A stretch of 64,000 nt of DNA from an uncultured virus (IMG/VR IMGVR_UViG_3300034061_003767) (taxonomy: Duplodnaviria; Heunggongvirae; Uroviricota; Caudoviricetes): the IMG/VR virus record IMGVR_UViG_3300034061_003767. The stretch is one strand, 5' to 3'. Under the pieces are notes generated by a model that saw only the letters and a list, made by a program, of their open reading frames with translations, had not been told where the DNA came from and did no database searches. Positions 2,515-18,308 of this stretch are shown here, piece after piece (the first letter of the stretch is position 1; each line of letters opens with the position of its first letter). The position numbers and the translations under genes were made by a program.

Positions 2515-2527
2515 AAAGGATAGAAAA

Positions 2528-2689: not shown

Positions 2690-2964
2690 CCCCCCGATGG
2701 TAGGGATAACCACACTCTCCCCCACATGGGGGATTGTACCACCCAAACTGGGCCGTTAGAACCTGCCAAAACGGCATACAAGGCAGACTGCCAAAATGGC
2801 AGAAATCGCGCGAAATCTGCCAAAATGGCAGCCACCAGCAAATATCGTGCCAAACTGCCCCCAGCAAATATCATGCCAAATGAAAATCTTTTTTTCTCTA
2901 TTTCTTTTTTTTGACAATGCCGATATAGAATGTAGGATAAGTGAAAAGGAAAAGGAGATTGAAA

Positions 2965-3099
2965 ATGTTTGACGATGCCGAATATATCTCGCAGTGCTGC
3001 GGTTGCCCGGTTGACGTACCTTGCCCAAGCGATCCGGTCGATGATATCGTCGTGATTTGCCCAGATTGTCAAGAATGGACGTCGATTGAAATCGAGTGA
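2965..3099 (+). CDS. Small Zn-ribbon protein (44 aa)
   Basis: SQCCGCP...ICPDCQEW; AAGGAG RBS; own promoter at 2911. Confidence 0.7.
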   Translation: MFDDAEYISQCCGCPVDVPCPSDPVDDIVVICPDCQEWTSIEIE

Positions 3100-3156
3100 T
3101 TTTTTTTGTTGACAATATCGATACTAAATGTAGGATAGCAGTATCACAAGGGAGAA

Positions 3157-3405
3157 ATGCAAATGGAAAGCCGTTGCGACAAGTTTGGTACGGTTCAGGT
3201 GAACAAGGGTTTCGAGTGTGTCAAGCATAACGGCAAGGGTTATGCTGGAAATATCGTCAAGGTGTCGGCTCACCCTAGGGGTACACTTGTCACGATTGAA
3301 TGGTATCTCCCGCGTGATCCTAGTCCCACCTATCGGTCGGTCTATCTCGAAGAGTGTGAAGTGTGGTGGACTCACACTTATAACCGCGAAGTTATCACCC
3401 ATTGA
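3157..3405 (+). CDS. Small beta-barrel protein, paralog of 3890-4150
   Basis: KFGTVQV..FEC.K.NGK.YAG.IVKVS....GTLVTI shared; promoter 3109. Confidence 0.8.
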   Translation: MQMESRCDKFGTVQVNKGFECVKHNGKGYAGNIVKVSAHPRGTLVTIEWYLPRDPSPTYRSVYLEECEVWWTHTYNREVITH

Positions 3406-3424
3406 ACGAAAAGGAAAGCAAACG

Positions 3425-3607
3425 ATGAATGATGAAATCCGAAATCTGGCAAACGCTCTCGGCCTTGTGGTCGCATCGGTATGGAATGGATACACTCGAC
3501 GATGGATTGTGAGCGAACGTGACGCATACTACCCCCTCTATACTACTACCGATTATGCTACGCTGATCGAAGGATTGAAGAATGGAGGACGATTCCCCCC
3601 ATTGTAG
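3425..3607 (+). CDS. Hypothetical protein
   Basis: AAGGA RBS before ATG 3425 (MNDEIRNLAN...). Confidence 0.6.
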   Translation: MNDEIRNLANALGLVVASVWNGYTRRWIVSERDAYYPLYTTTDYATLIEGLKNGGRFPPL

Positions 3608-3889
3608 GGAATACCCCCCTCCGAAGTAGGGTGGGCTACAATACCCCCCTTATGGGGGTTGTCTCAGCCGAGCCTCTCGGCTTACAATAATGACAGTCAG
3701 CCAGTGAGACTGCCAAAATGGCAGGCGCCGCGCGCTTTCTGCCAAAATGGCAGGCAGAGCAAATCTTGTGCCAAACGCCCACCAGCAAATATCATGCCAA
3801 ACAAAAAATATTTTTCCACAATCTTTTCCTCTTTTTTTTTGTTGACAATGCCGATACCTAATGTATAATCGAGGTATAACCAAGAGGAA

Positions 3890-4150
3890 ATGAAAATGAG
3901 TAAGTTTGGAACGGTTCAGGTTGGATACGATTTCGAGTGCCTGAAGAATAACGGTAAGCGGTATGCCGGTGAGATTGTCAAGGTTTCATCGTATGCTAAG
4001 GGTACGCTGGTCACGATTCGATATTATGAGTCAGATGCCTACAAAAACTCGTATGGGGAGTGGGTCGAGGGTTTTAGTCCAGTTCACAAGTCGATATATC
4101 TTGAAGATTGTGCCGAATGGTACACTGAGGAGCCAGCCCCCCAATACTAG
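3890..4150 (+). CDS. Small beta-barrel protein, paralog of 3157-3405
   Basis: Clear sequence similarity; promoter 3842; GAGG RBS. Confidence 0.8.
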   Translation: MKMSKFGTVQVGYDFECLKNNGKRYAGEIVKVSSYAKGTLVTIRYYESDAYKNSYGEWVEGFSPVHKSIYLEDCAEWYTEEPAPQY

Positions 4151-4189
4151 GGGGTTGTGCAGTTTGGTAGGATCAAGTCAGAAAGGAAA

Positions 4190-4390
4190 ATGGTCATGTT
4201 CATCATTATGAAACGTTCGCGAGCATATGAGGGGGCCACACCCCTCGACGCCTACAGTGTTCCCGAAACGTGTGCCTGTGCTGGTGTTGAACCCGGCAAG
4301 GTATACAATAGTCGGGAGTCTGCCCAAGTTGATGCCGACAAGTTGAGCCGGTACAATCCTATCGGGTTTGTTGTGGTTTCCTGTAAATAA
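4190..4390 (+). CDS. Hypothetical protein
   Basis: AAGGA RBS, ORF track. Confidence 0.6.
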   Translation: MVMFIIMKRSRAYEGATPLDAYSVPETCACAGVEPGKVYNSRESAQVDADKLSRYNPIGFVVVSCK

Positions 4391-4418
4391 GTTTTTCTCA
4401 CCACTAAGGGTATCAAAA

Positions 4419-4736
4419 ATGTTTCCGATTATTGAAAAAGCCAAGCGTCAAGCCTACCTTTGCTTCGTGGGTCTGGCTATCCCCTGCGACAAGTCTACGG
4501 CCGATGGCGGTATGATTCGGTCTGAAAAGGTTCTGAAGTTCAATCGGTCTGCTATGCGTGATAGTGTCAACGTCAAGGCCGAAAAGGTTGACCCCCGAAT
4601 GAGTGGGGGTGAGGATACGATGATTGTTAAGGTGGGCAAGCCGGGTAGTCGGGAGAGGGTAGAGGCTTTCCGGTCACAATATGACGCTATCGCCGCTATG
4701 GGCGAGGAAGTATCCCCCTTCGCTTGGGAGGGGTGA
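4419..4736 (+). CDS. Hypothetical protein
   Basis: ORF track (internal ATG, MFPIIEKAKR). Confidence 0.65.
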   Translation: MFPIIEKAKRQAYLCFVGLAIPCDKSTADGGMIRSEKVLKFNRSAMRDSVNVKAEKVDPRMSGGEDTMIVKVGKPGSRERVEAFRSQYDAIAAMGEEVSPFAWEG

Positions 4737-4932
4737 CCCACCCACGAGAGGGGTTCTGTCAAGTTGGCAGCCTTGACTGCCAAAATGGCAGAAATCGCGC
4801 GAAATCTGCCAAAATGGCAGCCACCAGCAAATATCGTGCCAAAAGCCAAAATATTATTTTGCTATTTTTTTTGTTTGACATTCAAGGTATGGCTGGTAGA
4901 ATACCGATATACCTAGCAGAGAGGAAAAGAAA

Positions 4933-5148
4933 ATGATCGAAAACAAAATCAAAGATGCACTGACTCAGATTTGGGGAAGCGAGTCTCACAACGTAACTTT
5001 TCTGGCAACCCCCGATGGTCGGCTGTACGCTGAGTGTGAGTCTACTATGGATCGTCGCCGGTTGACTGATAGTAACTATCGTGAGATTCTGAACGATATG
5101 TTTTATATTTACTGTCTGGAAAATGCCGCTTGGATGGGGGTTTCATAG
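4933..5148 (+). CDS. Hypothetical protein
   Basis: Promoter 4875, GAGG RBS. Confidence 0.7.
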   Translation: MIENKIKDALTQIWGSESHNVTFLATPDGRLYAECESTMDRRRLTDSNYREILNDMFYIYCLENAAWMGVS

Positions 5149-5319
5149 TCCCCCTGTTGTGGGGGTTGATTTGTCTTATCCGATCCTATCGGATTGGCAA
5201 GGTGGGCTATAGTCAGCCAAAATGAGGGCCTAATGGAAATCGTGAGTTTGGTATTGACATTGTGGATATCGGGTGGTATGATTCTTAGTGTGGTTTGGTT
5301 GCTCTCTTTGGAGTAAAAA

Positions 5320-5535
5320 ATGGATTACCAGAAAATCTATAAGTTTGATAATGGTTATGGGGCTAGTGTGGTTTGTAACTTTGGAACCTATGGGGCCAAA
5401 GATGGTCTTTTCGAGGTTGCCGTTCTTGACAGTAACGGAGAGATTGCATACAATACGCCCGTTGCTAGTGACGTTATCGGCTGGCTTGACTTTGCAGACG
5501 TTGCGGATATTCTGAATAAGATTAAGGCTCTCTAA
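5320..5535 (+). CDS. Phage hypothetical protein (FDNGYGASVV family)
   Basis: KFDNGYGASVV...GLFEVAVL...DVIGWL motif typical of small phage proteins; GGAG RBS. Confidence 0.75.
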   Translation: MDYQKIYKFDNGYGASVVCNFGTYGAKDGLFEVAVLDSNGEIAYNTPVASDVIGWLDFADVADILNKIKAL

Positions 5536-5550
5536 TCTAAGGAAAATAAA

Positions 5551-5853
5551 ATGACTTACGCCGAAGCGGTTTCTATGGTGCAAGGTAAAACCAATCGTAA
5601 GACTCGAAAGATTGGTAATAATACCTATGCGGAAATCGAGTATGATAACAGTGTTTCTATTCGGTTGCATGGTACATCGGTTGTAAGGTTTTATCCTAAT
5701 GGGCTGGTGAAGTTGAATAGTGGCGGGTGGCGAACCAGCACCACAAAAGATAGAATCAACAAGTATAGCCCCGTGAGTGTTTACCAAAAAAACTTTGAGT
5801 GGTTTTTGCGTGATCATACTCCGTTTGAAGATAATATCTTGGTTCGTAACTAA
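5551..5853 (+). CDS. Phage hypothetical protein
   Basis: LNSGGWRTSTTKDRIN motif; AAGGA RBS. Confidence 0.75.
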   Translation: MTYAEAVSMVQGKTNRKTRKIGNNTYAEIEYDNSVSIRLHGTSVVRFYPNGLVKLNSGGWRTSTTKDRINKYSPVSVYQKNFEWFLRDHTPFEDNILVRN

Positions 5854-6180
5854 AGAAAGGGGCTAGGGATGGCCGATTATATTAACTGGTATGTATTCTT
5901 TGCTGGATTTACTATTGGTGGTGCTTGTGTTTATAGTATTTGTGAACTACTTTTTCCTTTGAGTAAAAAAGATGAATAAGGCGGATTATATTCTGTTGAG
6001 TTTCTCTTTTGTGATGGGCTGCGTTCTTACCTATCTTCTCAACTAAAACAAGGGCTGCCAATATGGCAGTTTCCGCGGCCGAGCTGCCAAAATGGCAGAG
6101 ATTATTTTTGTGGATTTTTTTAGTTGACAAACCGATATCTAATGGTAGAATCAGCGTATCACCCCAACGGAGAAACGACG

Positions 6181-6369
6181 ATGAATCAGTTTCCTCGGAT
6201 GATGGCTCTTCTGGACGATACGGACACGATCAATGCTCTTCTGGCTCAACTGGTTGATGATGGATCAGTCGAGCCGATTGATGATCCTAATAACCTGACC
6301 GACTTTTGGGATTGGGCCGAAGTGGTCGGGATTGTGGATGAGTTTGCCCCTATTGACAGCATGGTTTGA
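6181..6369 (+). CDS. Small acidic hypothetical protein
   Basis: Promoter 6124, GGAG RBS. Confidence 0.7.
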   Translation: MNQFPRMMALLDDTDTINALLAQLVDDGSVEPIDDPNNLTDFWDWAEVVGIVDEFAPIDSMV

Positions 6370-6390
6370 TTAGTGTAAAAAGGATAAGTC

Positions 6391-6657
6391 ATGAGCCACC
6401 CCGATCCCCTTTACGATAAGGAAAACACGATGAGCCAGGATTCTTTTGACCGTTTCGATGATATGGCCGAGCGTACCATTTATCCGTGGATTGACGATGA
6501 GTCGCACGACAGCGACGATGCTAACTACGATGACCATGATGACTTTTTCGATGAGGATGATTACGACGATAGCATGGACGGAGATCATGATTCCGCGATG
6601 GAATCGGCGGGTTGGGGAACCGACGAGGACTACGGATACTACGGAGACGATTATTGA
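6391..6657 (+). CDS. Highly acidic Asp-rich protein
   Basis: DDHDDFFDEDDYDDSMDGDHDSAMESAGWGTDEDYG. Confidence 0.75.
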   Translation: MSHPDPLYDKENTMSQDSFDRFDDMAERTIYPWIDDESHDSDDANYDDHDDFFDEDDYDDSMDGDHDSAMESAGWGTDEDYGYYGDDY

Positions 6658-6793
6658 GCAAAACCCCGATCTGCCAAAATGGCAGCGGGGCCGCGATTTC
6701 TGCCAAAATGGCATACAAAGATTTTCTTATTTTTTTTCTTGACAGTGCCGATCTATATGGTATCCTTAGAGCATCACCCCAAAGGAAACGATA

Positions 6794-7129
6794 ATGACCT
6801 ACAACGGCTATTCTAACTACGAAACGTGGGCTGTTCAGTTGTGGATCGACAATAGTGAATCGTCCAGTGCGTTCTGGCATCGGCTTGCGGAAGAGATTTA
6901 TAATCACGCAGCATCCGAACAGGCTCATTTTAGCAAGGTCGAGGATGCTACTTGTATTCTGGCCGAAAAACTCCGCGATAGTTACAACGGCGGAATGGAA
7001 GCGCTTTTGAGTGATGGTAACGCAACCGGAACAGTTTGGGCCGATTTGCTGAACGCTAGTGTTTGTGCTGTTAACTTCCATGAGATTGCCAAGAATCTGA
7101 TGGAAAGTGTTGTAGCAGTTCCTGCTTGA
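6794..7129 (+). CDS. Phage hypothetical protein (YNGYSNYETW family)
   Basis: N-terminal YNGxxNYETW motif, C-terminal VNFHEIA; promoter 6739. Confidence 0.8.
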   Translation: MTYNGYSNYETWAVQLWIDNSESSSAFWHRLAEEIYNHAASEQAHFSKVEDATCILAEKLRDSYNGGMEALLSDGNATGTVWADLLNASVCAVNFHEIAKNLMESVVAVPA

Positions 7130-7193
7130 CAAACGATTTTCTTGTGGTATGCTAGTTTTATTGAGTGAAGGATTTCTAAACGAAAGGGTTTTT

Positions 7194-7601
7194 ATGAACG
7201 ACACGATTCTTTTTGGTTTGATTTTTGCTGGTGTGGCCGCTGCTATTTGTGCGTTTTCGTGGTTTCATGTTTATCGTGGAGTGCATGATAGTCTTACGAA
7301 TGCTAAGGTTGGTCAGGTTTATAACTTTAAGTATTTGCAGCCTGTGACTGATGTGCCTGAGCGTTTTATGGCTAGGGTGGTTGGTGTTCAAACTTTTACT
7401 GAGGATTATCTTAGTCGTTTGAATAGTAAGAGTCGTTATCGTCGGAATGATCCTGAGTTTCAGCGTAGTAAGCATCTTGTGACCGCTCAAACTTTTGATG
7501 GTAAGATTAGGAACTTTTATGCTGAGCGAACCACGGATGTTCGTCGCCCCCTGTTGGGAGGGGTACTCTTTAAGAGTGGAATGGCGAGCCTCTTCTTTTA
7601 G
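7194..7601 (+). CDS. Membrane-anchored protein with WYL/SH3-like domain
   Basis: N-terminal TM helix; GQVYNFKY...HLVTAQTFDGKIRNFYAER. Confidence 0.6.
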   Translation: MNDTILFGLIFAGVAAAICAFSWFHVYRGVHDSLTNAKVGQVYNFKYLQPVTDVPERFMARVVGVQTFTEDYLSRLNSKSRYRRNDPEFQRSKHLVTAQTFDGKIRNFYAERTTDVRRPLLGGVLFKSGMASLFF

Positions 7602-7854
7602 GAGGTTCCTCGTCTGCCAAAGTGGCAGGCGGGCCGCGAAAACTGCCAAAATGGCAAGATATTTTCTCACTTGACAACCTTCTAACAGCCGATACAATAA
7701 GCGTATGATTACATCAAACTGCTACTCTTGGAAAGTTTTTCGTTTTAGCCATACATTTGTTGGTTATGTTATGGCTAGTTCTCAATATGAAGCCAATATT
7801 CTTGCAAAAGAAAAGTATGGCGATTTCGTTTGGATTGAACGAGTTCGCTAGTCT

Positions 7855-7926
7855 GGCCCCGTAGTATAGTGGTTAGTACACTGGGCTTTCATCCCAGAGA
7901 CTGGAGTTCGATTCTCCACGGGGCTA
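7855..7926 (+). tRNA. trnE: tRNA-Glu(TTC)
   Basis: Cloverleaf GGCCCCG/CGGGGCT; anticodon arm CTGGG-CT TTC AT-CCCAG; T-loop TTCGATT. Confidence 0.95.
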
Positions 7927-7927
7927 C

Positions 7928-8017
7928 TAGAGAGAACAGGAATCGTAAACCCGCCACTCTCAAAATCCAATGAGTCCAACCAAAGGATTTGTGGCTATGG
8001 CTACCCTGTCTCTTCTA
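7928..8017 (+). ncRNA. Putative structured small RNA
   Basis: AGAG(A)ACAGG/CCTGTCTCT outer stem, GCCAC/GTGGC, two inner hairpins; no ORF. Confidence 0.5.
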
Positions 8018-8120
8018 ATCCTTCGGATTTGGTTAGCGTGGTGTAGTCAGCGAGAAGCACAAAAAATATTTTTTCAAGAAACCCTCTTGACAAGCCGATA
8101 ATAGATAGTACAATGATTGA

Positions 8121-8556
8121 AGAACAAGTGAAAACTTGTTGGTTATGTCGGGCCGAGTAGCCGGTAAAAACGGTAGTTGATGTCCTAGGAAACGTCTTCT
8201 ACAATCGGTCCTAACAATACAAACATCCGTGGGTCAAGCCAGACTAGATTGGGATAACCACTTCGATTATAGATATACATACCGTGTTGATCACTGGTCA
8301 AAAACTGTATATCGTTGCCTGTTGGGGTTATACAACGGGCTAGAAGTCCAATCTATGAGGGATAGCGTCCTCACCACGGCCAATACAACCAGTAACCGTT
8401 CCCAAGAGCCAGACCAGAGCGGGTCTTATGTGCTAGCAATGCCCGCTTTGCAGGGAGGATTTCCGTGGACGGTTTCCACCAGTTTTTACCTTGCTCCAAG
8501 GGTTCATAATATCGGAGTATTGGTGGGTTATAGAATCGGGGCGTAAACGATTCGCT
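8121..8556 (+). ncRNA. Large (~435 nt) multi-domain structured ncRNA, family unknown
   Basis: Own promoter 8087-8114; more than 15 nested helices including long-range pairs (see findings); no RBS-led ORF. Confidence 0.75.
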
Positions 8557-8601
8557 GGTTGACAAAATAAAAACACAGTGTAGAATACGAGAGTAAGACA
8601 T

Positions 8602-8688
8602 GGCGGGCGTAGCGTAATGGTAGCGTGTGTAAAATCGGTGGCAGAGATCTACTGTCTACACGAAATGGTTCGATTCCATTCCCCGTCC
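8602..8688 (+). ncRNA. tRNA-like RNA with extended anticodon arm
   Basis: Acceptor GGCGGG/CCCGTC, D-loop TAATGGTA, T-arm AATGG-TTCGATT-CCATT; 25-nt insert within GTGTA/TACAC; promoter 8559. Confidence 0.65.
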
Positions 8689-8691
8689 CTA

Positions 8692-8843
8692 GTCACCAAC
8701 GAAACTCCGATTCATTCGGTGTGCTACCCTCCATAATGAGATCATAGCCTATATTGGTGACACAATACAACTCTGCTGATAGTTTCCTTAGAAATAAGGT
8801 TGAATAAATATAGTGCCGAGTGCTTATTCGTAAAACTATCAGT
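8692..8843 (+). ncRNA. Two tandem three-way-junction RNA structures
   Basis: GTCACCAA/TTGGTGAC (8692-8761) and GCTGATAGTTT/AAACTATCAGT (8775-8843) with CCTTA-GAAA-TAAGG. Confidence 0.5.
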
Positions 8844-8962
8844 GTGTCGGCCAAAATGACAGGCCGAGCGGCCGATCTGCCAAAATGACAGATATTTTTT
8901 TGTGGACTTTGCGTATTGACAAGCCGATAATAGACTATAGAATACGAGCATAGGAGAGAAAC

Positions 8963-9136
8963 ATGAATCACGACCCATATTGGACATTCCCACAGTTTCC
9001 TGAGAATAATACTTGGGAGATTCGCTATTTGTGTTGGCGAGCGTGTGGCGAAACCAGAGAACACAGCACACGACTCGCTAATGAGGGACGTATGCCTGCT
9101 AACTGGTGGATGCTTTACAGAGATGATGGAAGGTAA
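8963..9136 (+). CDS. Small Trp-rich hypothetical protein (57 aa)
   Basis: Read manually: MNHDPYWTFPQFPENNTWEIRYLCW...; AGGAG RBS; promoter 8916. Confidence 0.65.
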   Translation: MNHDPYWTFPQFPENNTWEIRYLCWRACGETREHSTRLANEGRMPANWWMLYRDDGR

Positions 9137-9137
9137 A

Positions 9138-9338
9138 ATGAGAATAAGTAAAAAACAAATATCAGATGCTCTTAGTATTGATAGTGACGATCTATCGTCA
9201 AAGGATATGGGTATTGCATTATTGAACATTGAGAGTATACTTGATAGCGTTGCTGAAAACCTTGATGATGATTTTGAATCTGCGGCTTTGGGCGATGCTT
9301 CTAATCTAATACAAATGATAAGAGAGGCATTGACTTGA
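9138..9338 (+). CDS. Hypothetical acidic protein
   Basis: Internal ATG (MRISKKQI) coupled to upstream stop. Confidence 0.6.
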   Translation: MRISKKQISDALSIDSDDLSSKDMGIALLNIESILDSVAENLDDDFESAALGDASNLIQMIREALT

Positions 9339-9570
9339 CGATAAAGAATGGTATAATGGTGACAAATGAGAATCTTCCGTAAAATAATTCTGTTCTTGCC
9401 GTCTTTGACCATGTTCTTTCTGGCATACTTTAGTTTTATTTGTGATAACGAGGCTACACACTTTAGTTTTAGGTGGAAATAATGACCGTTAATGAGTTTA
9501 TTGACGAGTTTCTTGATCCAAAGTTTCAAGAAATATTGAAGATTGTGGAACAGGTTTTGGAGGAAAATAA

Positions 9571-9795
9571 ATGAACTGGCATTATGATAATCCTATTAGG
9601 GACCGTAAGTATCTTTGTTGTGTAAAGGGATACTCTGAACCTATTGATCTTCTCTGGAATAAAGAGCAGGGAGGGTGGGGTGATTGGTGGCATGGTGAAT
9701 ATGACGATGGTTTGGCAGAATGGGATCAGTTTGACAATGATCTAGTGGTATGCTATATTGGTTTTGATGAGATTCCTATGCCGGAGGGTTGGTAA
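9571..9795 (+). CDS. Hypothetical protein (DUF551-like, Trp-rich)
   Basis: GGAGG RBS; MNW...KYLCCV...IPMPEGW. Confidence 0.65.
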   Translation: MNWHYDNPIRDRKYLCCVKGYSEPIDLLWNKEQGGWGDWWHGEYDDGLAEWDQFDNDLVVCYIGFDEIPMPEGW

Positions 9796-10049
9796 TGGAA
9801 TGGCTTAGTTTTTTTGGTTATCGTCGCCCTATTAATGGGCAAAAGGTTTATTACTTTGGGCCAGATATTGGGGTATGGCGGGGAAGATATGAGATTCATA
9901 GAGATGATCCTGTGAGTGAACATATTCTTATTTGTGAAGAAAGTCCCGGTCTTGTGGATCGTATGGATGCTCCGTGGTGGATGCCGTATGAGGGACAACC
10001 AAAACCAAAACGACCAACTACCGATTATCCAGAGGATTACCCGCAATGA
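9795..10049 (+). CDS. Hypothetical protein (DUF551-like)
   Basis: MEW...WWMPY...P pattern; TAATG coupling. Confidence 0.65.
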   Translation: MEWLSFFGYRRPINGQKVYYFGPDIGVWRGRYEIHRDDPVSEHILICEESPGLVDRMDAPWWMPYEGQPKPKRPTTDYPEDYPQ

Positions 10050-10582
10050 TTACTATTTCAACCGATGAGTTTCGTCGTCTTATCGGCCATATTCAGGAGT
10101 ACCTTGACAATCCTAATCTACCTAATACAATGGCGAAGATTGCTATCGACACCCTAAAGATGTACGATATTGAAGCCTACGAGGAAAATGCAAAAAATGA
10201 ATGAAGATCGTGAAAAGGCTATGGTTACTATCATCAACTTTTTTAACTCTCGCATGGGTGCGATGAGCAAGAATAATGTAGATAAGGCTAAAGAGTTGAT
10301 CTCTACTCATGAGATTGCGGCTTCTGAACTGGTGGATAAATACGTGAGGCTTGTCTATGAAAACTCTTAGTGATATTTGTCCGTGTGGGGCGTGTGATGT
10401 TCTGGTGTGGAAGTATGATGATTATGGATTAATCTGGAACTTCTGCCAGCAATGCCATTGGTGGTATATCGACAACGATTAACTGCCATAATGGCGGTGG
10501 TCGCGGCCGAACTGCCAAAATGGCAGAATATTTTTCTTATAGAACGGTATTGACAGTGCCGATACTAATGGTATACTTAGGG

Positions 10583-10666
10583 AAACAATGGGCGGGGACA
10601 ACCACAATGATATCAAAGAAGGTTGTCTGAAATGTCCGTCGAGTATGGCCCAAGCCGACATTGTTT
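10583..10666 (+). ncRNA. Putative promoter-driven structured small RNA
   Basis: Promoter 10550-10577; AAACAATG/CATTGTTT, GGCGGG/TCCGTC, GACAACC/GGTTGTC, GGC-CCAA-GCC. Confidence 0.55.
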
Positions 10667-10769
10667 TTCCTAATCCTCCGGATTTGGCTGGGGTGGCTGT
10701 AGTCAGCGAAAGTTTAAAGATCTTGACAAGAGTTGGTCGATAGAGTATACTCTAGTTATAGGAGAAAAA

Positions 10770-10994
10770 ATGGATATGAGCGTTATAGCAAGATTTGAGG
10801 CTCTGGACAGACTTAGTGAATCTCTTACAAAGCAACAGATTGAAGATTTACAGATAGTTATTAAAAACACCAAAGAAGAACTAGAGATTTGTGAAAACTG
10901 TGGAGATAGTTGGGTTGGAAATACAGAAAAAACTCTAGAGATGCTTGCTAACAGTTTAAACTTTCAACCAGACTATCCTGAATACGACTATTGA
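10770..10994 (+). CDS. Hypothetical protein
   Basis: Promoter 10723, AGGAG RBS. Confidence 0.7.
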   Translation: MDMSVIARFEALDRLSESLTKQQIEDLQIVIKNTKEELEICENCGDSWVGNTEKTLEMLANSLNFQPDYPEYDY

Positions 10995-11025
10995 CAACTG
11001 ATAGCCGATAGAATATAGTATAAGC

Positions 11026-11451
11026 ATGAAACAGAAACCACTATACGGCGAAGTTCGTTTTCACCTTTCTAACGGTGAGCATTATATGCACTGGCAAGTT
11101 AAGGTTAAGCAGGGTGGAAAAACTGTTGATGTGTATTATTATGACCCCAAAGAATATCAGTTGGAAATGAGGGGTTGTAAGTTGTGGAACCGGCCGAATA
11201 AGGCTAAACAGGTATTTGAGGCTGGTGTGCATGATGTTAGTGGGTGGGTGCGGTGTGAAGAAGTTATGTTGAGGAAGGATTTTCATCCCGCTCTACCTAT
11301 TGACAATCTTGAGAAGTTGTTTTATAATCCACTTCGTGATCCACACTGGCGACGAGAAAGCGACAATAACGAGTTCGTTTGGGACGGTAGCGAGTATGCT
11401 ACTCTTCTGACTAACGGCAAACAAGTTTACATTTTGGAAGAAAGGATTTAA
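11026..11451 (+). CDS. Hypothetical protein
   Basis: 141-aa ORF after promoter 10991. Confidence 0.75.
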   Translation: MKQKPLYGEVRFHLSNGEHYMHWQVKVKQGGKTVDVYYYDPKEYQLEMRGCKLWNRPNKAKQVFEAGVHDVSGWVRCEEVMLRKDFHPALPIDNLEKLFYNPLRDPHWRRESDNNEFVWDGSEYATLLTNGKQVYILEERI

Positions 11452-11822
11452 TGATGATTAATCTGCAACTGAGCGTTCGTGAGGCTATGGAACTTGCTTT
11501 CTATGCTAGGGAGGACATTAGAGAGCGTATCACTCAGGCTTTTGAGGTGGCTTTGGGTGTGAACCAGCGTTGTACTGTTACGATCACTAGGGGTATGAGT
11601 TTGGATAACCGTATCCCGTGTATCAAGGCTATTCGCCAGTATACTGGTTGGGGTTTGAAGGAGAGCAAGGAGTGGACTGATGATCTGGTTGGTGGTTGGA
11701 AGGGCGATAGGTTCGTTCCTGCTACTCACCACACCAACAGCATCACTCTCAAGAATCCTGAGATGGCGGAAAATCTGCTGCGTGACCTGACCACTTTGGG
11801 TTGTGAGGGTTATCTCTCATAA
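11451..11822 (+). CDS. Ribosomal protein bL12 (L7/L12) C-terminal-domain-like protein
   Basis: NRIPCIKAIRQYTGWGLKESKEWTD resembles KI.VIKAVR..TGLGLKEAK; AE.L...L..LGC ending. Confidence 0.75.
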   Translation: MMINLQLSVREAMELAFYAREDIRERITQAFEVALGVNQRCTVTITRGMSLDNRIPCIKAIRQYTGWGLKESKEWTDDLVGGWKGDRFVPATHHTNSITLKNPEMAENLLRDLTTLGCEGYLS

Positions 11823-12050
11823 CTGCCAAAGCGGCAGGCGCCGCGGCCGATCTGCCAAAATGACACCCAAAAAATATTCACGAACGGCTGTTGACTTGCC
11901 GATACTCTATGGTAGAATGATAGCATCACACGACAAGACGCCAACCGATCACGACAACACAAAAGTTCGGATTGGCTCTTGACAAGTGATGATTGGGATG
12001 ATAAGATACGTTTGTTCGGTTTGATTAACACTAACTTGGAGAGATTTACC

Positions 12051-12305
12051 ATGAAGAAGTTTTCGTTTGTTGTTGATATTGTTGCTACTGATCTTGACCG
12101 TGAGGTTGTGGTTGATTCGATTGGTGATTGTCTGCGTGATGCTCTGCCGTCCGATGTTCATGCTAACGTCAAGGCCGGTGAGGTCAAGGCTTTTAGCGAG
12201 CAGGGTTATAAGGTTTGGCGGGCTAGGGTTACTGGCGTGACTGCCAAGGCTGCTGGCGATGCTCACAATAGCAAGGTCGAGCAGGAAGTCGAGGCTGTTG
12301 CCTGA
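12051..12305 (+). CDS. Hypothetical protein
   Basis: GGAG RBS, MKKFSFVVDIV; promoter 11979. Confidence 0.7.
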   Translation: MKKFSFVVDIVATDLDREVVVDSIGDCLRDALPSDVHANVKAGEVKAFSEQGYKVWRARVTGVTAKAAGDAHNSKVEQEVEAVA

Positions 12306-12328
12306 GCCTAGCATATCTACTATAATAT

Positions 12329-12369
12329 CCGATAGACCGCTAGTGGCGAACTGGCGGCTATCGGTTTTT
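12329..12369 (+). terminator. Intrinsic terminator-like hairpin
   Basis: CCGATAG-A-CCGCTAG/CTGGCGG-CTATCGG followed by TTTTT. Confidence 0.65.
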
Positions 12370-12371
12370 AT

Positions 12372-12443
12372 GGCCCCATAGTTAAATGGATATAACAACT
12401 GCCTTCTAAGCAGTTATTGGAGGTTCGATTCCTCCTGGGGCTA
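12372..12443 (+). tRNA. trnR: tRNA-Arg(TCT)
   Basis: Cloverleaf; ACTGC-CT TCT AA-GCAGT. Confidence 0.95.
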
Positions 12444-12565
12444 TTATCCTGCCAAAACGGCAGGCTCCGCGGCCGATCTGCCAAAATGGCAGCTATTTTT
12501 CTTCAAGTTTTTTTGCTTGACAAGCCGATATTCTATTGTAGAATCAGTAGCACAGGAGACATAAA

Positions 12566-13270
12566 ATGAAAACAGCAGACGGTAACGATAAGTTGGGCAA
12601 GGGTTGCATTGTGGTTTCGCGTCCGGTTGGCGATACTTGTCCGTCCGATTGCGACTATCTCAATAATGGCTGCTATGCTGAGGCTACGGAAAATCAGTAT
12701 AAAAATGCTCGTACTGCCGGGTTTGCTAATCTAGTCACGGAAAAGCATAAAATCCGTGCTATGATTCTTGACGCTAAGAAGCGTAAAAAGTCTATTCGCT
12801 GGCACGAACGTGGCGACTGGTTTCTCAATGGCGAACTTGACCTAGACTATGTTGCTAATGTAACGTGGGCGTGTGAGAGTATTCTTGCCGATGGTGATAG
12901 TCTGCCTGATATGTGGTTTTATACCCATATTTATGATAGTCGGCTTGTTGCACTGGAAAAGTATATGAACGTATATGCTAGTGTGCATGATGATAATGAT
13001 ATGGGCGAGGCTATGGCACAAGGCTTCAAACTGTTCGCATGGTGCGATAGCGATATGAAAATCGCCCCGAAGCGTCCAAAGAGTAAAGTCAAGGCGGAAG
13101 CATGGAGGAAAGCGTTGCCCAAACTTGTTGTGCTGAATGGTAGCAAGTTTGTAACGTGTCCGGAAATCCGTCGTGGTCGGTCAGAAATCACTTGCACTGG
13201 CACGAAAGATAGTATATCATGCGACTTGTGCGTTCGCGGTTTGGCTAATGTTCTATTCCCTGCCCATTGA
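12566..13270 (+). CDS. Gp88-like Cys-rich phage protein (radical-SAM-related fold)
   Basis: TCPSDC...GCYA, IRWHERGDW, WFYTH, C-terminal CP...C...CDLC. Confidence 0.6.
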   Translation: MKTADGNDKLGKGCIVVSRPVGDTCPSDCDYLNNGCYAEATENQYKNARTAGFANLVTEKHKIRAMILDAKKRKKSIRWHERGDWFLNGELDLDYVANVTWACESILADGDSLPDMWFYTHIYDSRLVALEKYMNVYASVHDDNDMGEAMAQGFKLFAWCDSDMKIAPKRPKSKVKAEAWRKALPKLVVLNGSKFVTCPEIRRGRSEITCTGTKDSISCDLCVRGLANVLFPAH

Positions 13271-13277
13271 GGATAAT

Positions 13278-13520
13278 ATGAAAAGTTTTACATATAAATG
13301 TCTGCCGATTGCAGAAGTGTGCGAATATAACGACTTGCTTTTGATGGATGTTATGGATGCTATTTGTGATAGTGATATTAGTTTTGGTACTAACTATGAT
13401 ACTATTATCTCTCACACTCAACTAGAAAGTATTCTGGAAGATGCTGGTATTGCTATCGACGGATTAGATTATAATAATCACGATGCTGATGGATTAGTTC
13501 TTATCGCCTTGGGGAGTTGA
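13278..13520 (+). CDS. Hypothetical protein
   Basis: GAGGA RBS, MKSFTYKCL. Confidence 0.6.
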   Translation: MKSFTYKCLPIAEVCEYNDLLLMDVMDAICDSDISFGTNYDTIISHTQLESILEDAGIAIDGLDYNNHDADGLVLIALGS

Positions 13521-13524
13521 GCAG

Positions 13525-13770
13525 ATGAGTAAGTGGTATGTAAAAAGTAATACGGTCGAAAAGATTGTTAGTATTCCTCATAGTAGTCCTATGATGGCTG
13601 CTATTCAGGTGTTTAATGATACTAATGAGTTTGATATTTTTGACGAATATTTTTATGTGGACGAACGTGGATTCCGTGACTATACAAATGCTGATAGTTT
13701 AACCCAGATTATTAAAACGCCCAAAGTTATGATTCGTGCTAAAGAGCAACAGGAGGAAGATCTGCCATAA
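13525..13770 (+). CDS. Hypothetical protein
   Basis: ORF track, GGAG RBS. Confidence 0.65.
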   Translation: MSKWYVKSNTVEKIVSIPHSSPMMAAIQVFNDTNEFDIFDEYFYVDERGFRDYTNADSLTQIIKTPKVMIRAKEQQEEDLP

Positions 13771-14280
13771 TGGCAGCCTCCGCGGGCCAACTGCCAAAAT
13801 GGCATTAAAGTTCCAAGCCGATCATGCCGATAATATCCGTATGGACGAGAAAAAGGATTTGACAAGGATAACACTTATGCTACAATGGATTGGTGTGATT
13901 GTTGCTATTTTAGGCTTTGCTTATAATGGTGTAAAAGATTATCAAAAGGGTGAGATTAAACTTCCTGCTTTGCAACAAAAACAGGAGTTGACAAAAACGA
14001 ATCATCCGATACAATATTGTTTAATGGCATACGACCCTAATCTAAATAAAGTTTTCTATCAGCACGAAAATGGACAATGGTATGATTACGCTCCACAACA
14101 ACGACGATACGCGACCACGCCGCAAGTACGGCACTATTAAACTCAAGGTTAAGAAGCCTTGGGAAGTGTCTACTGGTCACAAGGAACACAGGGATACGCT
14201 TATGGATAATCGCCCCAAGCGACAGCGTACTCGCAAGGCTATTGACAGGAGTTGGCAAAGAGAGTATGATATGTAGTCTT

Positions 14281-14353
14281 GCCGATGTAACTCAGTTGGT
14301 AGAGTAGCGGTTTTGTAAACCGCCTGTCGGGGGTTCAAATCCCTCCATCGGCC
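14281..14353 (+). tRNA. trnT: tRNA-Thr(TGT)
   Basis: Cloverleaf; GCGGT-TT TGT AA-ACCGC. Confidence 0.95.
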
Positions 14354-14354
14354 C

Positions 14355-14425
14355 TCCGAGATGGTGAAACGGTATCACAGAGGACTTTGGATCCTTTATT
14401 CTACGTTCGAATCGTAGTCTCGGAA
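14355..14425 (+). tRNA. trnQ: tRNA-Gln(TTG)
   Basis: Cloverleaf; GAGGA-CT TTG GA-TCCTT. Confidence 0.93.
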
Positions 14426-14453
14426 TCGGAGGCTGACGTTTGAGTTGCGATGG

Positions 14454-14525
14454 TGGCGAGTAGCACAACGGTAGTGCAAGCGGCTGTTAACCGCTAGGTT
14501 ACAGGTTCGAATCCTGTCTCGCCAG
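14454..14525 (+). tRNA. trnN: tRNA-Asn(GTT)
   Basis: Cloverleaf; AGCGG-CT GTT AA-CCGCT. Confidence 0.95.
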
Positions 14526-14626
14526 TTTCAGCTAATCCTACGGATTTGGTTGTGGTGGTTGTAGTCAGCGAAAATCTCAAGTGTGTGGTGTTGACAAACC
14601 GATAATATCTGATATACTGCTGATAT

Positions 14627-14699
14627 GGATCTCTAACTCAATCGGTAGAGTAGCGGCCTTTTAAGCCGTAGGTTCTGGGTTCGAGTCCCAGGGGGTCCA
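14627..14699 (+). tRNA. trnK: tRNA-Lys(TTT)
   Basis: Cloverleaf; GCGGC-CT TTT AA-GCCGT; promoter 14591. Confidence 0.95.
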
Positions 14700-14748
14700 C
14701 TTGACAGTTGTTTGGTTTGGTGTAGAATAGAGCAAAGGAGAAACGACT

Positions 14749-14925
14749 ATGCCTGATGATGAATATGAGTTTCATTATGATAGTGTTGTGGAAGATTCCG
14801 ACGCTCTATATGAAGATGACTTTTTTGATGTGATTTTTGATGATGATGACGATTATGATTCTCCTGACCAACAGGACTATGAATATTACTATCATAATGT
14901 AGTGGATGAACTAGACAACGAATAG
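14749..14925 (+). CDS. Highly acidic Asp/Tyr-rich protein (58 aa)
   Basis: Read manually: MPDDEYEFHYDSVVEDSDALYEDDFFDVIFDDDDDYD...; AAGGAG RBS; promoter 14701. Confidence 0.75.
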   Translation: MPDDEYEFHYDSVVEDSDALYEDDFFDVIFDDDDDYDSPDQQDYEYYYHNVVDELDNE

Positions 14926-14938
14926 CCCTTTCTCGTCT

Positions 14939-15030
14939 GGTGGACGCAACTTGGTGGGACAAGTATTCTATACCTAGGCATAACGCCTTATCTATCCTTT
15001 CTTAGTACGTTCGAATCGTGCCGTCCATCT
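14939..15030 (+). ncRNA. tRNA-like RNA with non-canonical central region
   Basis: GGTGGACG/CGTCCATC acceptor, ACTTG-GTGGGA-CAAGT D-arm, GTACG-TTCGAAT-CGTGC T-arm. Confidence 0.65.
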
Positions 15031-15041
15031 TTGACTCTCCT

Positions 15042-15518
15042 ATGGAAGACGTAAGAAAAACAACCGAAGGCAAGTATATTCAGGGTGCTAGCCACACTTG
15101 CCACGTTTTGAATCATAAGGCTAGAAATAAGATTATTATTAAGGCTGTTTGTGATCTAAGAAAAATAGCAGATAGTTTTGATAGCATTGCCTGCTGCGGT
15201 GTAAGTGGATTGATGGTGGTTCCACAAATCGCAGAGTTACTCAACAAGAATATTGTTGTGGTAAGAAAGGGGGAACAATGCTATTCAGAGTTTCGTACCG
15301 AGGGAGTGGCCCCTTTTCAATATATTATATTAGACGATTTAATCTGTTCTGGTTCGACCGTTCGGCATATTAAAAAGGTAATCAAGGATGAATACTCGCG
15401 TTCTCATTGTGTTGGGGTGTATTGTTATCTGCCTAATGAATGTGCTTATCGTAACGATGAGGATGGTTCTAAACTCTGCAAGCGTGATCTCGGTGTTTCG
15501 CTCCTAAATATTGGGTGA
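15042..15518 (+). CDS. Type I phosphoribosyltransferase
   Basis: PRPP-binding motif YIILDDLICSGSTV; VVVRK. Confidence 0.8.
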   Translation: MEDVRKTTEGKYIQGASHTCHVLNHKARNKIIIKAVCDLRKIADSFDSIACCGVSGLMVVPQIAELLNKNIVVVRKGEQCYSEFRTEGVAPFQYIILDDLICSGSTVRHIKKVIKDEYSRSHCVGVYCYLPNECAYRNDEDGSKLCKRDLGVSLLNIG

Positions 15519-15661
15519 CTGCCACAATGGCAGCATCCGCGGACCGCCTGCCAAAATGGCAGAAAAGATTTTCTGGATTTCTAACGCTTGACAAGCCGAA
15601 TACATACTGTAGAATCAGCGTATCGGAACGAAAGAAGTTAGCCACCACGAAGGAGATTAAG

Positions 15662-16606
15662 ATGCCTGCTGCTGTTGAAAAGATGATGTTTGTTGGTGAG
15701 ACACCTTGGCATGGCCTTGGTAATCAGGTCGATGAGGGTATCGCTGTTAACGATGCTATTGTCGAGGCTGGTCTGGATTGGGAAGTGGGTCTGAAGGATT
15801 TGCAGACCGTTGATGGTACTCCTGTTAATCATCGTGCAACATATCGCAAGAGCGATGGTAGCATCCTTGGTGTTGTTGGACCTCGCTATACCCCTCTCCA
15901 GAATAAAGATGCGTTTGATTGGTTCCAGCCTTTCCTTGATGCTAACGAGTGTTCGATCCATACTGCCGGATCGCTCCACCTTGGTCAAAAGGTCTGGGTT
16001 CTCGCTCAACTCAACCGCGACAATAGCGAGATTGTTCCGGGTGATGAGGTTAGCAAGTTTATCCTGCTGAGTAATAGCCACGACGGTACAACGGCTATTC
16101 GTGTCGGATACACTCCGATTCGTGTGGTCTGCGTGAATACGCTGTCATATGCTCACAAGCATGCGAACAGCCAACTGATTCGTATTCGTCACACTCGCTC
16201 CAGCCAGAAGAATCTGGAACAGGTTCGTGATATTATGGACAATATTAACGCTGGTTTTGAGGCTACTGCGGAACAGTATCGGTTCCTTGCTGGTAAGCAG
16301 TTTAACCAGAAGGATATTGATAAGTATGTTAAGGTTGTGCTGAATATTAAGGGTGCTGACGAGGATATTAAGACTCGTACCCGTAATATTATGGACGATA
16401 TTATGAGCCGTATCGAAGGCCCAAAGCAGACTGCGGCTAATGTTCGCGGTACTTGGTGGGCTGCTTATAATGGGTTCAATGAATATCTGAACTATGGTAA
16501 GGGTCGCACGACTGACAACCGGCTCGATAGCCTCTGGTTCGGCCAGAACGCTAACGAGAATAATAAGGCGTTGGAATCCGCTCTGGAGTTTGCCAACGCG
16601 ATCTAG
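15662..16606 (+). CDS. DUF932 (TIGR03299 phage/plasmid-like) protein
   Basis: TPWHGLG, Y.PLQN..AF, LLSNSHDGT, TPIRVVCVNTL, IRHT, GTWWAAYNG motifs. Confidence 0.9.
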   Translation: MPAAVEKMMFVGETPWHGLGNQVDEGIAVNDAIVEAGLDWEVGLKDLQTVDGTPVNHRATYRKSDGSILGVVGPRYTPLQNKDAFDWFQPFLDANECSIHTAGSLHLGQKVWVLAQLNRDNSEIVPGDEVSKFILLSNSHDGTTAIRVGYTPIRVVCVNTLSYAHKHANSQLIRIRHTRSSQKNLEQVRDIMDNINAGFEATAEQYRFLAGKQFNQKDIDKYVKVVLNIKGADEDIKTRTRNIMDDIMSRIEGPKQTAANVRGTWWAAYNGFNEYLNYGKGRTTDNRLDSLWFGQNANENNKALESALEFANAI

Positions 16607-16626
16607 TCTTCCTTTCGTGGCGTGGT

Positions 16627-16668
16627 AAGAGCCGCCGTAGGGGTAATGCCCTGCGGCGGTTTCTTTTT
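16627..16668 (+). terminator. Intrinsic terminator
   Basis: GCCGCCGTAGGG-GTAATG-CCCTGCGGCGGT followed by TTCTTTTT. Confidence 0.85.
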
Positions 16669-18308
16669 ATACCATGACTGCCAAAACGGCAGACGGCCCG
16701 CGGCGCCTGTCAAGATGGCAGATCGAGATTTTGTCAAAGAATCTCAAAAAGGTTGCTTGCTACTCCAGGGGTTAGACGATACAATGGAGGCGTAAGTCGT
16801 TATCTGTCAAGGGTTTACGACTAATATTAGTAGAAGAGATTAGATGAAATCTTTTCTATAAAATATATAGATGATCACCAACCCAATTTACTTGGATTAC
16901 CCAATCCTACGGATTTGCGGTCTTGGCGATAGTCAGCGAAAGAAAGGGTCACTATGAAAGTTTATGTAGTATTTGATTTCCCTGAGATATCGGACGTTAA
17001 TAGTCCAGAAGCAGATTTTGCTATTGATAGTCTCAGTGAAGATTTGACCGGGTTTGCTAGAGATGGTGAATATGAGTGGTATATTGATGATGCAGAAGGA
17101 GGAACTAATGGCTAATAAATATGTTAAGTATTTTACTGCTACTATTAAAGTAGAGGGTGACTCTGATGAGGCGATCAATCATATCGGTCGCAATATTCAA
17201 AACTGGATTGATGATACTCTGATTGATGATACTATTTTTACTGATGGTAGTGGTGATGCTATTATGGTTTCTTGGAGGGAAAATAATGGATGAAATTATT
17301 AGGGCGATTAATGATAGTCTGGATAATGCTAAAACCAAACTAACATGGTACTCTATTACTGGGGATAGTCAGTATATGGATGAGTGTAAAGAATGGCAAA
17401 ATATTGCTAGTATCTATATGAATCAACTTATCATGGAGCAGAAGAATGAAAGTTGTGCAAGTACAAATTGAATTGGTTATTAATGATGATGTAACCGATA
17501 AGCAGGATATTGCTGTTTATCTTACTGATAGATTGTATAGTGATCCTGAATTCTTTGGGGATTTTGGTCCTGAGAATATTTTATCTGTAAAGGAATTTGA
17601 ATGAGATACGATCCTGAATATAACAGTTATAAGTTTAGCAGTGAAGAGCTTATCCATATTGTTGATGGGTTAAATTTTTATAAACTTTATTCTCCTCTAG
17701 AAGATAAGTTTGCTAAAAGTATTGAGATCCTTATTCATAATCTTATTAAGAGTACCAAGATGCCTATGAGTCAGTAACCAGTGTGTTGTGTGTTCGTTCT
17801 TATGATAATCGTGTGGGTCTGAAAAGTCAAGCAGTGGTATGTTATGTTGTAAAGGAGTATAGGTTCTAGTTACTAGTATCTTACTCTATTCACATTACTT
17901 ACACTTATCACTACTCACTGACCTAGATATTATTACTTAACTGCTCTGCATAATATATCCCCCTCCAGAGATACCCTGTCAAGTAGCGAAACCCGCTTAA
18001 TAAAAAATAGTTTTAGTGGGTTGGATTTGTAAGTCGTTTAGTATCAAAGGGTTGCGTCAGATCGGCCGATATGGTATGATACAGTGTGTGTTCAAACCGT
18101 TTGTAAAGGATGTTAATGACTATTGTTCTTATTGCTAGTTGTGTTATTGGTATTATGAATGGTCTTGCTGTGGTTAAAAATGGTTAGTAGTTTTTGAATG
18201 AGATATTCTGGTATTAGTATGTTTGCCCAACGCTATTGTTTTTAACTTTCATCATTAGCAAACTTGACTATACCACAATCTCATTGGTTGTCAAATAACA
18301 AAACAGGA

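Follow-up and report, generated by a model that had tools for sequence, protein, structure and literature searches.

The element described here is a double palindrome of 44 bp, CTGCCAAAATGGCAG-N14-CTGCCAAAATGGCAG, which is repeated thirteen times in the early region of a T4-like phage represented by the IMG/VR record IMGVR_UViG_3300034061_003767 (the window means the whole 64-kb stretch of this record that was analysed). Its surroundings recall the PeSLs of the T4-type phages RB49/phi1, PST/T4 and nt-1/KVP40, as presented in their descriptions (PMC2839356, PMC4122927). In these phages, a PeSL is a stem-loop with an AT-rich tract and then a sigma70-like early promoter just 3' of it, and PeSLs cluster in hyperplastic regions, at indels between close relatives (PMC4122927). 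The element can best be regarded as the 5' module of an early regulatory cassette that resembles a PeSL and in which the slot of the stem-loop is filled by a paired dyad conserved letter for letter. It may provide paired docking sites for a putative sequence-specific DNA-binding protein at the boundary between early units, a reading that the sequence data favour with a probability of roughly 0.5.

According to this proposal, the two 15-bp dyads, 29 bp apart around a GC-rich and CGCG-centred core, would dock a protein on double-stranded DNA, probably as two dimers or as a tetramer, and this protein could be encoded by the phage or by its host. With the protein bound about -60 to -103 relative to the next promoter, where the preceding gene has its 3' end, a boundary between early transcription units would be set, and the promoter downstream could be shut off, insulated or tuned. 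In addition, the element is a preferred end-point of homologous exchange, since it is the longest invariant stretch in the array. Cassettes are thus gained, lost and swapped from its first base, and their shuffling is a by-product of the repeats.

In the window, the 15-mer CTGCCAAAATGGCAG gave 29 matches at up to 2 mismatches where 0.09 were expected from shuffles. They correspond to 27 sites on the plus strand and to two minus-strand re-reads of sites with a symmetric loop, and at the same tolerance no copy was found in the window beyond 2763-16721. Thirteen pairs were observed, all on the plus strand (Table 1), and the 14-nt spacer was exact in each of them, in agreement with the original prediction, which had placed thirteen pairs at this spacing between 2.8 and 16.7 kb and none elsewhere. 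The extra single copies that it had listed at 2763 and 4756 were also seen as degenerate palindromes, the latter with 3 mismatches. When single palindromes were located first and no spacer was assumed, the distance between neighbours was 29 nt in 73 of the 83 cases of up to 120 nt found in the window and five related genomes. The 29-bp spacing is therefore not created by the search pattern itself.

Across 134 unique contexts, the positions of the arms were 93-100% invariant, with the exception of the last base of the second palindrome (84%). The spacers of these contexts represent 104 distinct sequences, with a mean of 73% GC and central positions occupied by G or C only. The description of the spacer as GC-rich and usually containing CGCG was confirmed, as this word is present in 12 of the 13 window spacers. 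It was also found in 80 of the 134 unique related spacers, compared with 25.4 expected and a maximum of 36 when each spacer was shuffled. Symmetric pairs within the 134 spacers were no commoner than in shuffles, and the possibility that the spacer itself is a palindrome or hairpin was rejected. Such a combination of invariant arms around a free but compositionally constrained spacer is not one that gene conversion can produce.

The element is conserved in related phages. The exact 44-bp pattern was found in 116 stretches of IMG/VR viral contigs, and four complete relatives of 138-224 kb, whose rIIA is 49-79% identical to that of the window, contain 15-31 copies each at up to 1 mismatch. In these four genomes the copies are on one strand only and within a single region of about 9-20 kb, which is GC-rich in each of them; no copies were found outside this region, and none of the reversed control pattern. 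An absence of conservation, which had been named as evidence against the whole idea, is thus not what the relatives display. Among 185,579 species genomes of bacteria and archaea a single match was obtained, on a 1.8-kb contig of a metagenome-assembled genome that identifies no host. On this distribution, the double form of the element is not a site of a host regulon. No occurrence of the 15-mer sequence was found in the literature, and a further paper in which PeSLs are mentioned (PMC4503421) has no bearing on the element.

Substitutions among the copies indicate what is selected in the palindrome. In a set of 452 unique copies, 225 of which are the exact consensus, 208 stem pairs were changed: 182 were broken, 24 were kept by wobble and 2 were compensated. 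For the internal pairs 2:14 to 5:11, a tally of per-pair counts from which terminal and loop-closing pairs were excluded gave 18 preserved out of 86, close to the estimate of about 17-25% for unconstrained substitutions. In the same way, 49 of the 53 changed pairs were broken when the element was taken as one long hairpin. The variants had been said to keep the dyad; on the contrary, G12 was changed to A (TGACAG) 40 times opposite an unchanged C4, and the compensating T4 was seen only twice. T10 was changed to C 29 times with its partner unchanged. The extruded hairpins of the N4 type that had been offered as an alternative are not supported by the same counts, as the conservation of pairing that they require was not observed.

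The two arms are not equally conserved. According to a tally, the left arm with the A-tract (CTGCCAAAA) is about half as variable as the right arm, and the TGCCAAA word is also found in a neighbouring motif that is not palindromic. Changes in the loop led to T in 72 of 101 cases, mostly from A, and the centre stays A/T. As far as these substitutions indicate, pairing is not under selection, and it is the sequence that is selected, with a fixed spacing. Invariant words at a rigid distance around a free spacer argue for a recognition of the letters by a protein, most simply on duplex DNA. The earlier proposal of tandem sites for a dimeric regulator with a 29-bp period is consequently retained for its sequence-specific sites of fixed period, which are the best fit to the substitutions, and abandoned for the strict activator-like position that it attributed to them.

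A comparable arrangement was found in relatives that are free of the palindrome. At the same positions upstream of early promoters, they contain GC-rich islands of 13-23 nt flanked by a short palindromic word, TAAGNNCTTA, and near variants of it, often followed by the same sigma54-like box as in the window. Of the copies of TAAGNNCTTA, 11 out of 13 in G008 and 8 out of 11 in G009 are located in the early region. A repeated 15-nt palindrome of 6+3+6 geometry that would replace CTGCCAAAATGGCAG was not found in the palindrome-free relatives. With its 2-nt centre, TAAGNNCTTA is unable to form a hairpin loop. Short dyads around a GC-rich core thus seem to be the conserved design and the dyad word its exchangeable part, as expected for protein-DNA recognition. 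The loci L160, L176, L182, L188 and L193 are early regions of palindrome-free relatives with this boundary element of the TAAGNNCTTA type.

The thirteen pairs are distributed over a promoter-dense early array with 45% G+C, compared with about 32% in the remaining sequence, a contrast that is also present in relatives. Strong promoters were defined as plus-strand matches to TTGACA-16/17-TAnnnT at at least 10 of 12 consensus positions. Downstream of all 13 elements a promoter was found, 12 of them at this level and one at 9/12, with T-runs upstream and then a Shine-Dalgarno sequence and an ATG downstream. The element forms the 5' edge of a repeated cassette of about 170-200 bp that is composed of the palindrome pair, a T-rich tract, a near-consensus sigma70 promoter and a 5' untranslated region. 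The T-run belongs to the promoter, because promoters without a palindrome have one too, for example at 3109. For seven of the 13 elements, a stop codon or the 3' end of a tRNA lies no more than 15 nt upstream of the first base, and three of these elements begin at the very next base. Many of the array promoters have an extended -10 and an upstream T-run, with a conserved (G)CCGATA word in the promoter spacer (CGATA in 14 of 30). Moreover, open reading frames (ORFs) on the left side of the array are followed by hairpin-like words made of C5-6 and G4-6 runs (CCCCCC-N3-9-GGGGG), in many cases between the stop codon and the palindrome pair, and in many relatives a G-run is located just 5' of the first palindrome.

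Table 1. Positions of the double palindromes and of other features in the window.
Feature	Position	Strand	Remarks
Double palindrome 1	2788..2831	+	extra degenerate copy 2763-2777; promoter 79 nt downstream
Double palindrome 2	3710..3753	+	promoter 88 nt downstream
Double palindrome 3	4777..4820	+	extra degenerate copy 4756-4770; promoter 54 nt downstream
Double palindrome 4	6055..6098	+	25 nt to -35 box at 6124
Double palindrome 5	6671..6714	+	13 nt past stop codon of ORF 6391-6657; promoter gap 24 nt
Double palindrome 6	7614..7657	+	promoter gap 13 nt
Double palindrome 7	8848..8891	+	most degenerate, TGACAG in both right arms; promoter gap 24 nt
Double palindrome 8	10483..10526	+	first base directly after TAA stop codon; promoter gap 23 nt
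Double palindrome 9	11823..11866	+	first base directly after TAA stop codon; promoter gap 24 nt
Double palindrome 10	12449..12492	+	4 nt past tRNA-Arg; promoter gap 24 nt
Double palindrome 11	13762..13805	+	first loop (TAA) is the stop codon of ORF 13525-13770; promoter gap 53 nt
Double palindrome 12	15519..15562	+	first base directly after TGA stop codon; promoter gap 25 nt
Double palindrome 13	16678..16721	+	behind canonical intrinsic terminator 16629-16662
GC-rich early array	1935..15615	+	30 strong sigma70-type promoters, 13 with the element and 17 without
Two sigma54-consensus-like boxes, TGGCAY-N5-TTGC	2838..2878	-	directly 3' of element 1
Further sigma54-like boxes	1866-1880, 3759-3773, 3785-3799, 4827-4841	-	
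C5-6 / G4-6 hairpin-like words	1840-1855, 2293-2306, 2719-2732, 3644-3658, 4137-4154, 5150-5165, 7547-7563		
Three-helix helix-turn-helix (HTH) protein, 74 aa	1435..1659	+	arginine-rich third helix, basic tail; conserved at array head
Actin-like protein, Volactin family	54699-55700	+	E 5e-62
tmRNA gene	41610-41966	+	Rfam RF00023, 116.6 bits
Divergent sigma-like gene and conserved neighbour	621-1238 and 1-645	-	Sigma70_r2 E 7e-5, just under cut-off

Several observations weigh against the docking of a protein, and some of them concern geometry and promoters. A distance of 29 bp corresponds to 2.76 helical turns, so that two dimers would not be on a shared face of the helix. The original prediction had reported a gap of 23-25 nt between the end of the element and a TTGAC(A/T) -35 box, which was found to be true for all seven copies that it named. 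For the remaining six copies, the promoter gaps are 13, 35 (a weak promoter, 9/12), 53, 54, 79 and 88 nt. In relatives, a promoter was detectable in 83 contexts; the gap was 22-26 nt in 33 of them, and further classes were seen near 13, 52 and 80-90 nt. The distance to the promoter hence varies in steps and is not constant, and an activator-like phasing in the strict sense applies to no more than 7 of the 13 window copies and the 33 relative contexts. Moreover, since only 13 of the 30 strong promoters bear the element, it is dispensable for early promoter function, and a general role at early promoters is not supported, as 17 strong array promoters are devoid of a palindrome.

In the same direction, a reader protein was not found among the candidates examined, namely the ORF of an HTH protein at the head of the array, the genes that distinguish palindrome-bearing genomes and the genes of the array. 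The HTH protein has an invariant RRQRRK in its third helix and an AT-hook-like RGR(R/P)KK tail. Its gene has its own terminator at 1684-1715, and its position is kept in 4 of 5 relatives. The family comprises at least 150 homologues, none of them with a Pfam domain. A sub-threshold match linked the protein to the C-terminal end, the last 43 positions, of Sigma54_DBD (E 0.073), and no sigma54 was found when the family profile was compared with solved structures. The AlphaFold model (pLDDT 77.7) corresponds to a generic three-helix HTH. No significant match was found with Foldseek, in which sigma54 chains had E > 2 and the best match by target coverage was the DNA-binding domain of GcrA, also non-significant. 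Among the HTH loci with at least 2.5 kb of downstream sequence, 32 out of 52 lacked a palindrome to a distance of about 6 kb, and 0-1 copies were counted in each of five long related genomes that contain the HTH ORF. As the gene is present without palindromes and its recognition helix is identical in the palindrome-bearing and palindrome-free groups, it was rejected as the specific reader and is probably not the reader. G003, which has palindromes and no HTH match, is uninformative because its array abuts the contig end.

The gene content of G003-G006, which have palindromes, was also compared with that of G008-G010, which have none, a contrast set that is probably one clade. Three non-array genes only were found to separate the groups, coding for an actin-like protein, a small membrane protein (just upstream of the actin-like gene in G006) and a SpoU methylase, and none of the three is a DNA binder of the expected kind. 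No array gene was found to be both universal in and specific to palindrome-bearing genomes. The actin-like protein has an identity of 82-100% in the best 80 among 357 related viral contigs. As a partner of the palindrome it fails, because G020 is a true counter-example: along with its early region it possesses the genes of both the actin-like and the HTH protein, and it has 0 palindromes. Three other apparent cases of this kind, G016, G018 and G019, were dropped, as their contigs end before the array. These contigs, the records behind L308, L334 and L347, were rated 95-100% complete by CheckV. They nevertheless stop near rIIA or the actin gene and are devoid of the whole early region, with the HTH gene, td and other markers likewise absent. 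Arrays of this kind are a probable cause of breaks in metagenome assemblies and of misleading completeness estimates.

Finally, the element folds well as RNA, and the pairing test rests on the degenerate half of the copies, which may be decaying, the other half being exact consensus. The predicted folds have -7.1 kcal/mol for the 15-mer and -20.5 kcal/mol for the 44-mer, which forms one long hairpin with an AAA/AAA bubble, and -13 to -28 kcal/mol for the 44-mer with its flanks. A simple rule of a hairpin plus a T-run close by is satisfied by 3-4 of the 13 second palindromes; for the remaining ones, the T-run begins 3-6 nt off or is absent. This raises the possibility that the element is a classical PeSL stem-loop, acting as RNA in the form of two small hairpins or a long one at the 3' end of early units, where it would terminate or stabilise the upstream transcript and shield the next promoter from read-through. 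Its position would be fitting, directly after stop codons or a tRNA, just 5' of a promoter and always in the sense orientation, and the architecture is that given in the available part of the PeSL description (PMC4122927). Against it stand the broken pairs of both the short and the long folds, the unequal conservation of the arms and the fixed, CGCG-enriched spacer, which is unnecessary for a loop or a linker. The T-run is moreover a part of the promoter, copy 13 is directly behind a canonical terminator, and the analogous word of the relatives cannot form a hairpin. An RNA stem-loop is therefore considered unlikely.

The original prediction had related the element to adjacent sigma54 motifs and to a host enhancer-binding protein. 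The boxes themselves are real. Six sigma54-like boxes were counted in the window compared with 0.21 expected, all on the minus strand. Of 134 elements, 58 are directly flanked on the 3' side by AGCAAAT-N4-RTGCCAAA, and in 56 of these 58 boxes TGCCA is located 28-30 nt past that of the second palindrome, so that the 29-bp period is continued. Read on the opposite strand, this motif is TTTGGCAY-N5-TTTGCT, a full match to the -24/-12 consensus of sigma54. In 80 loci found via an unrelated protein, regions downstream and upstream of the conserved HTH gene were compared. The early regions contained 171 boxes in 304 kb, 151 of them antisense to the early genes, against 3 boxes in 465 kb upstream and 0 for the reversed control, and all of the 20 palindrome-bearing loci contain such boxes.

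These findings could suggest a recognition of the sigma54 type, in which the TGGCA words of the palindromes and boxes would be read by a reader of -24 elements. Candidates for this reader are the sigma54 holoenzyme of the host, perhaps joined by an enhancer-binding protein, and a phage protein that bears a helix like the RpoN box; at the cassette head, it would build either an antisense promoter or a nucleoprotein block that stays silent. The weak resemblance of the HTH protein to Sigma54_DBD and the sigma54 chains among its non-significant structural matches would be in line with this. However, the boxes begin 4-5 nt past the second palindrome, and the palindromes are downstream of the boxes and abut them instead of lying 80-150 bp upstream. 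As the boxes are antisense and abut the palindromes, the latter are not upstream activator sites for them. In the window, a box follows the element in only 4 of the 13 palindrome-bearing cassettes, and the sixth box, at 1866, is at the head of the first cassette, which is palindrome-less. The spacer offers only a GC at the -12 position, in 69 of 134 cases.

In five complete related phage genomes, a search for the sigma54 activator domain gave weak AAA+ matches (E 0.006-0.008), with a control that matched 14 of 14 control genomes, and Sigma54_DBD was not found. The HTH family had neither sigma54 among solved structures nor a significant fold match, and its gene is not tied to the palindrome. 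Nothing relevant was found in the literature on sigma54 with phage early promoters. The idea of an enhancer-binding protein is accordingly not supported, as the boxes do not have the activator geometry and no cognate domain beyond generic AAA+ noise was found in the five genomes, and a -24-type reader of the TGGCA words is a minority possibility with a rather small chance of being correct. The same low expectation applies to a broader version, in which the palindrome pair, the CGCG-centred core and the box would form one nucleoprotein element. Its TGCCAAA words, repeated every 29 bp (about a quarter turn per step), would be bound by a -24-type reader, to give a programmable boundary of early cassettes and a source of antisense control. 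This reader would be the host sigma54 holoenzyme as a silent closed complex or a phage HTH protein like the RpoN box, and related phages would have swapped the flanking word for TAAGNNCTTA and kept the GC core and the box.

The early cassettes are shuffled between related phages. When 109 unique contexts were aligned all against all, 257 left homology ends were obtained, 145 of which are located within 10 nt of the first palindrome base, and right ends cluster 150-210 nt downstream, past the promoter and the 5' untranslated region. The flanks are mosaic: of 19 multi-member downstream clusters, 15 have partners in at least two upstream clusters, as do 16 of 20 in the reverse comparison. Cassette shuffling in relatives, which the recommended synteny check addressed, is thus real, and homology blocks often begin exactly at the first palindrome base. 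When the window array was compared with five relatives, 72 block ends were obtained, which are not independent since one boundary recurs in several genomes. Fifteen were at palindromes (4.0 expected), 9 at promoters following a palindrome (5.0 expected), 17 at palindrome-less promoters (8.3 expected) and 31 elsewhere (54.6 expected).

This mosaicism could be attributed to a dedicated DNA-processing site that a site-specific enzyme cuts, nicks or recombines to mobilise cassettes, like an integron attC or a homing site. The element folds like a small attC, in which each arm has two boxes, AAA/AAA forms an unpaired bubble and the tip is variable, several copies directly adjoin stop codons, and homology blocks begin at its first base and end at palindromes more often than expected. 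On the other hand, pairing is not conserved, every cassette has its own promoter, and palindrome-less promoters are likewise rich in breakpoints. In five complete related genomes, searched along with positive controls, neither a tyrosine recombinase (PF00589, 0/5) nor a serine recombinase (PF00239, 0/5) was found. In addition, the window carries at 10749-10991 an extra gene between two plain promoters in comparison with relatives. Breakpoints at plain promoters and this insertion indicate that homologous exchange between repeated cassettes is sufficient. Of the recombination sites put forward in the original prediction, the shuffling can be kept and the recombinase-type site is very unlikely.

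Centromere-like sites, to which an actin-like protein of the Volactin/ParM type would bind via an adaptor and position the phage DNA, are the least credible reading: type II partition sites (ParMRC) typically contain short dyads in repeated form and the actin-like gene is one of the three non-array genes present in G003-G006 and absent from G008-G010, but this co-occurrence is not independent if the contrast set is one clade, G020 has the gene and the early region with no palindrome, no adaptor gene was found, and the sites are coupled to promoters and spread over 14 kb, 38 kb away from the actin gene.

The phage of the window is T4-like by its gene content, which includes rIIA/rIIB, an RNA ligase, a DNA ligase, a clamp-loader-like ATPase and a thymidylate synthase. 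Ten tRNA genes are present, several of them within the early array and with their own promoters. A tRNA-Ser with the anticodon ACT was identified by ARAGORN at 18309-18395 on the plus strand; its unmodified-A wobble position is unusual. The sigma-like gene and its neighbour are transcribed away from the array and are 52-85% identical in relatives. In a collection of named phages, only a 73-bp tRNA-like match to the window was found, and the closest record, G001, is a 34-kb fragment without the array.

The docking-site proposal can be compared with several known systems. Tandem sites for dimeric regulators are found in the lambdoid operators and in the tandem NtrC dyads at glnAp2. The element resembles them in having, upstream of a promoter and at a fixed spacing, two dyads of about 15 bp that are odd-centred, with A/T in the middle; it differs in that it does not overlap the promoter, that the 29 bp from centre to centre do not make up a whole number of helical turns and that the distance to the promoter is stepped. 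The promoters of the N4 virion RNA polymerase are hairpins, and the geometry of a 6-bp stem with a 3-nt loop is similar. Here, however, pairing is not conserved, canonical sigma70 promoters follow every copy and the gene content is T4-like. Integron attC sites share the position at cassette boundaries by stop codons and, when folded, two boxes per arm and a variable centre. They are conserved in structure and variable in sequence and belong to promoterless cassettes, whereas the element is conserved in sequence and not in structure, has a fixed central length and heads cassettes with their own promoters, and no integrase was found in five related genomes. With respect to a parC-like centromere, the remote actin-like gene, the adaptor that was not found and the palindrome-free G020 set the element apart.

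The closest likeness is with the PeSLs. In both cases, the hyperplastic early region of a T4-like phage contains a small composite cassette that begins with a palindromic module and continues through an AT-rich tract and a strong sigma70-like promoter to a Shine-Dalgarno sequence and the start codon. Tandem repeats of this cassette alternate with small genes, and relatives differ there by insertions, deletions and replacements. Promoter, Shine-Dalgarno sequence and start codon, as well as hyperplastic clustering and association with indels, are thus all seen here. A stem-loop that acts as a terminator is not supported, as most of the changed pairs are broken and only 3-4 of the 13 second palindromes pass the simple rule of a hairpin plus a T-run. 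The PeSL has a single stem of variable sequence; here a pair of one invariant 15-bp word is held around a GC-rich spacer of constant length (14 bp), no selection for pairing is seen and the element heads just 13 of the 30 promoters. It keeps its exact letters in phages that share only 49-85% identity in rIIA. So far, PeSLs have been seen as units of promoter plus terminator whose repeats drive the gene shuffling of T4-type phages. In the large uncultured clade represented by the 116 viral stretches, the position of the stem-loop is occupied by an invariant paired dyad that appears to be selected for its letters and its spacing, which points to a previously unrecognised trans-acting reader that would control or insulate a subset of early units. 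Because relatives use another word around the same kind of GC-rich core, this boundary module seems to be exchangeable between lineages. Once found, its reader would give a handle on how timing and partitioning are achieved in an early region as dense in promoters as this one, with 30 near-consensus promoters in 14 kb.

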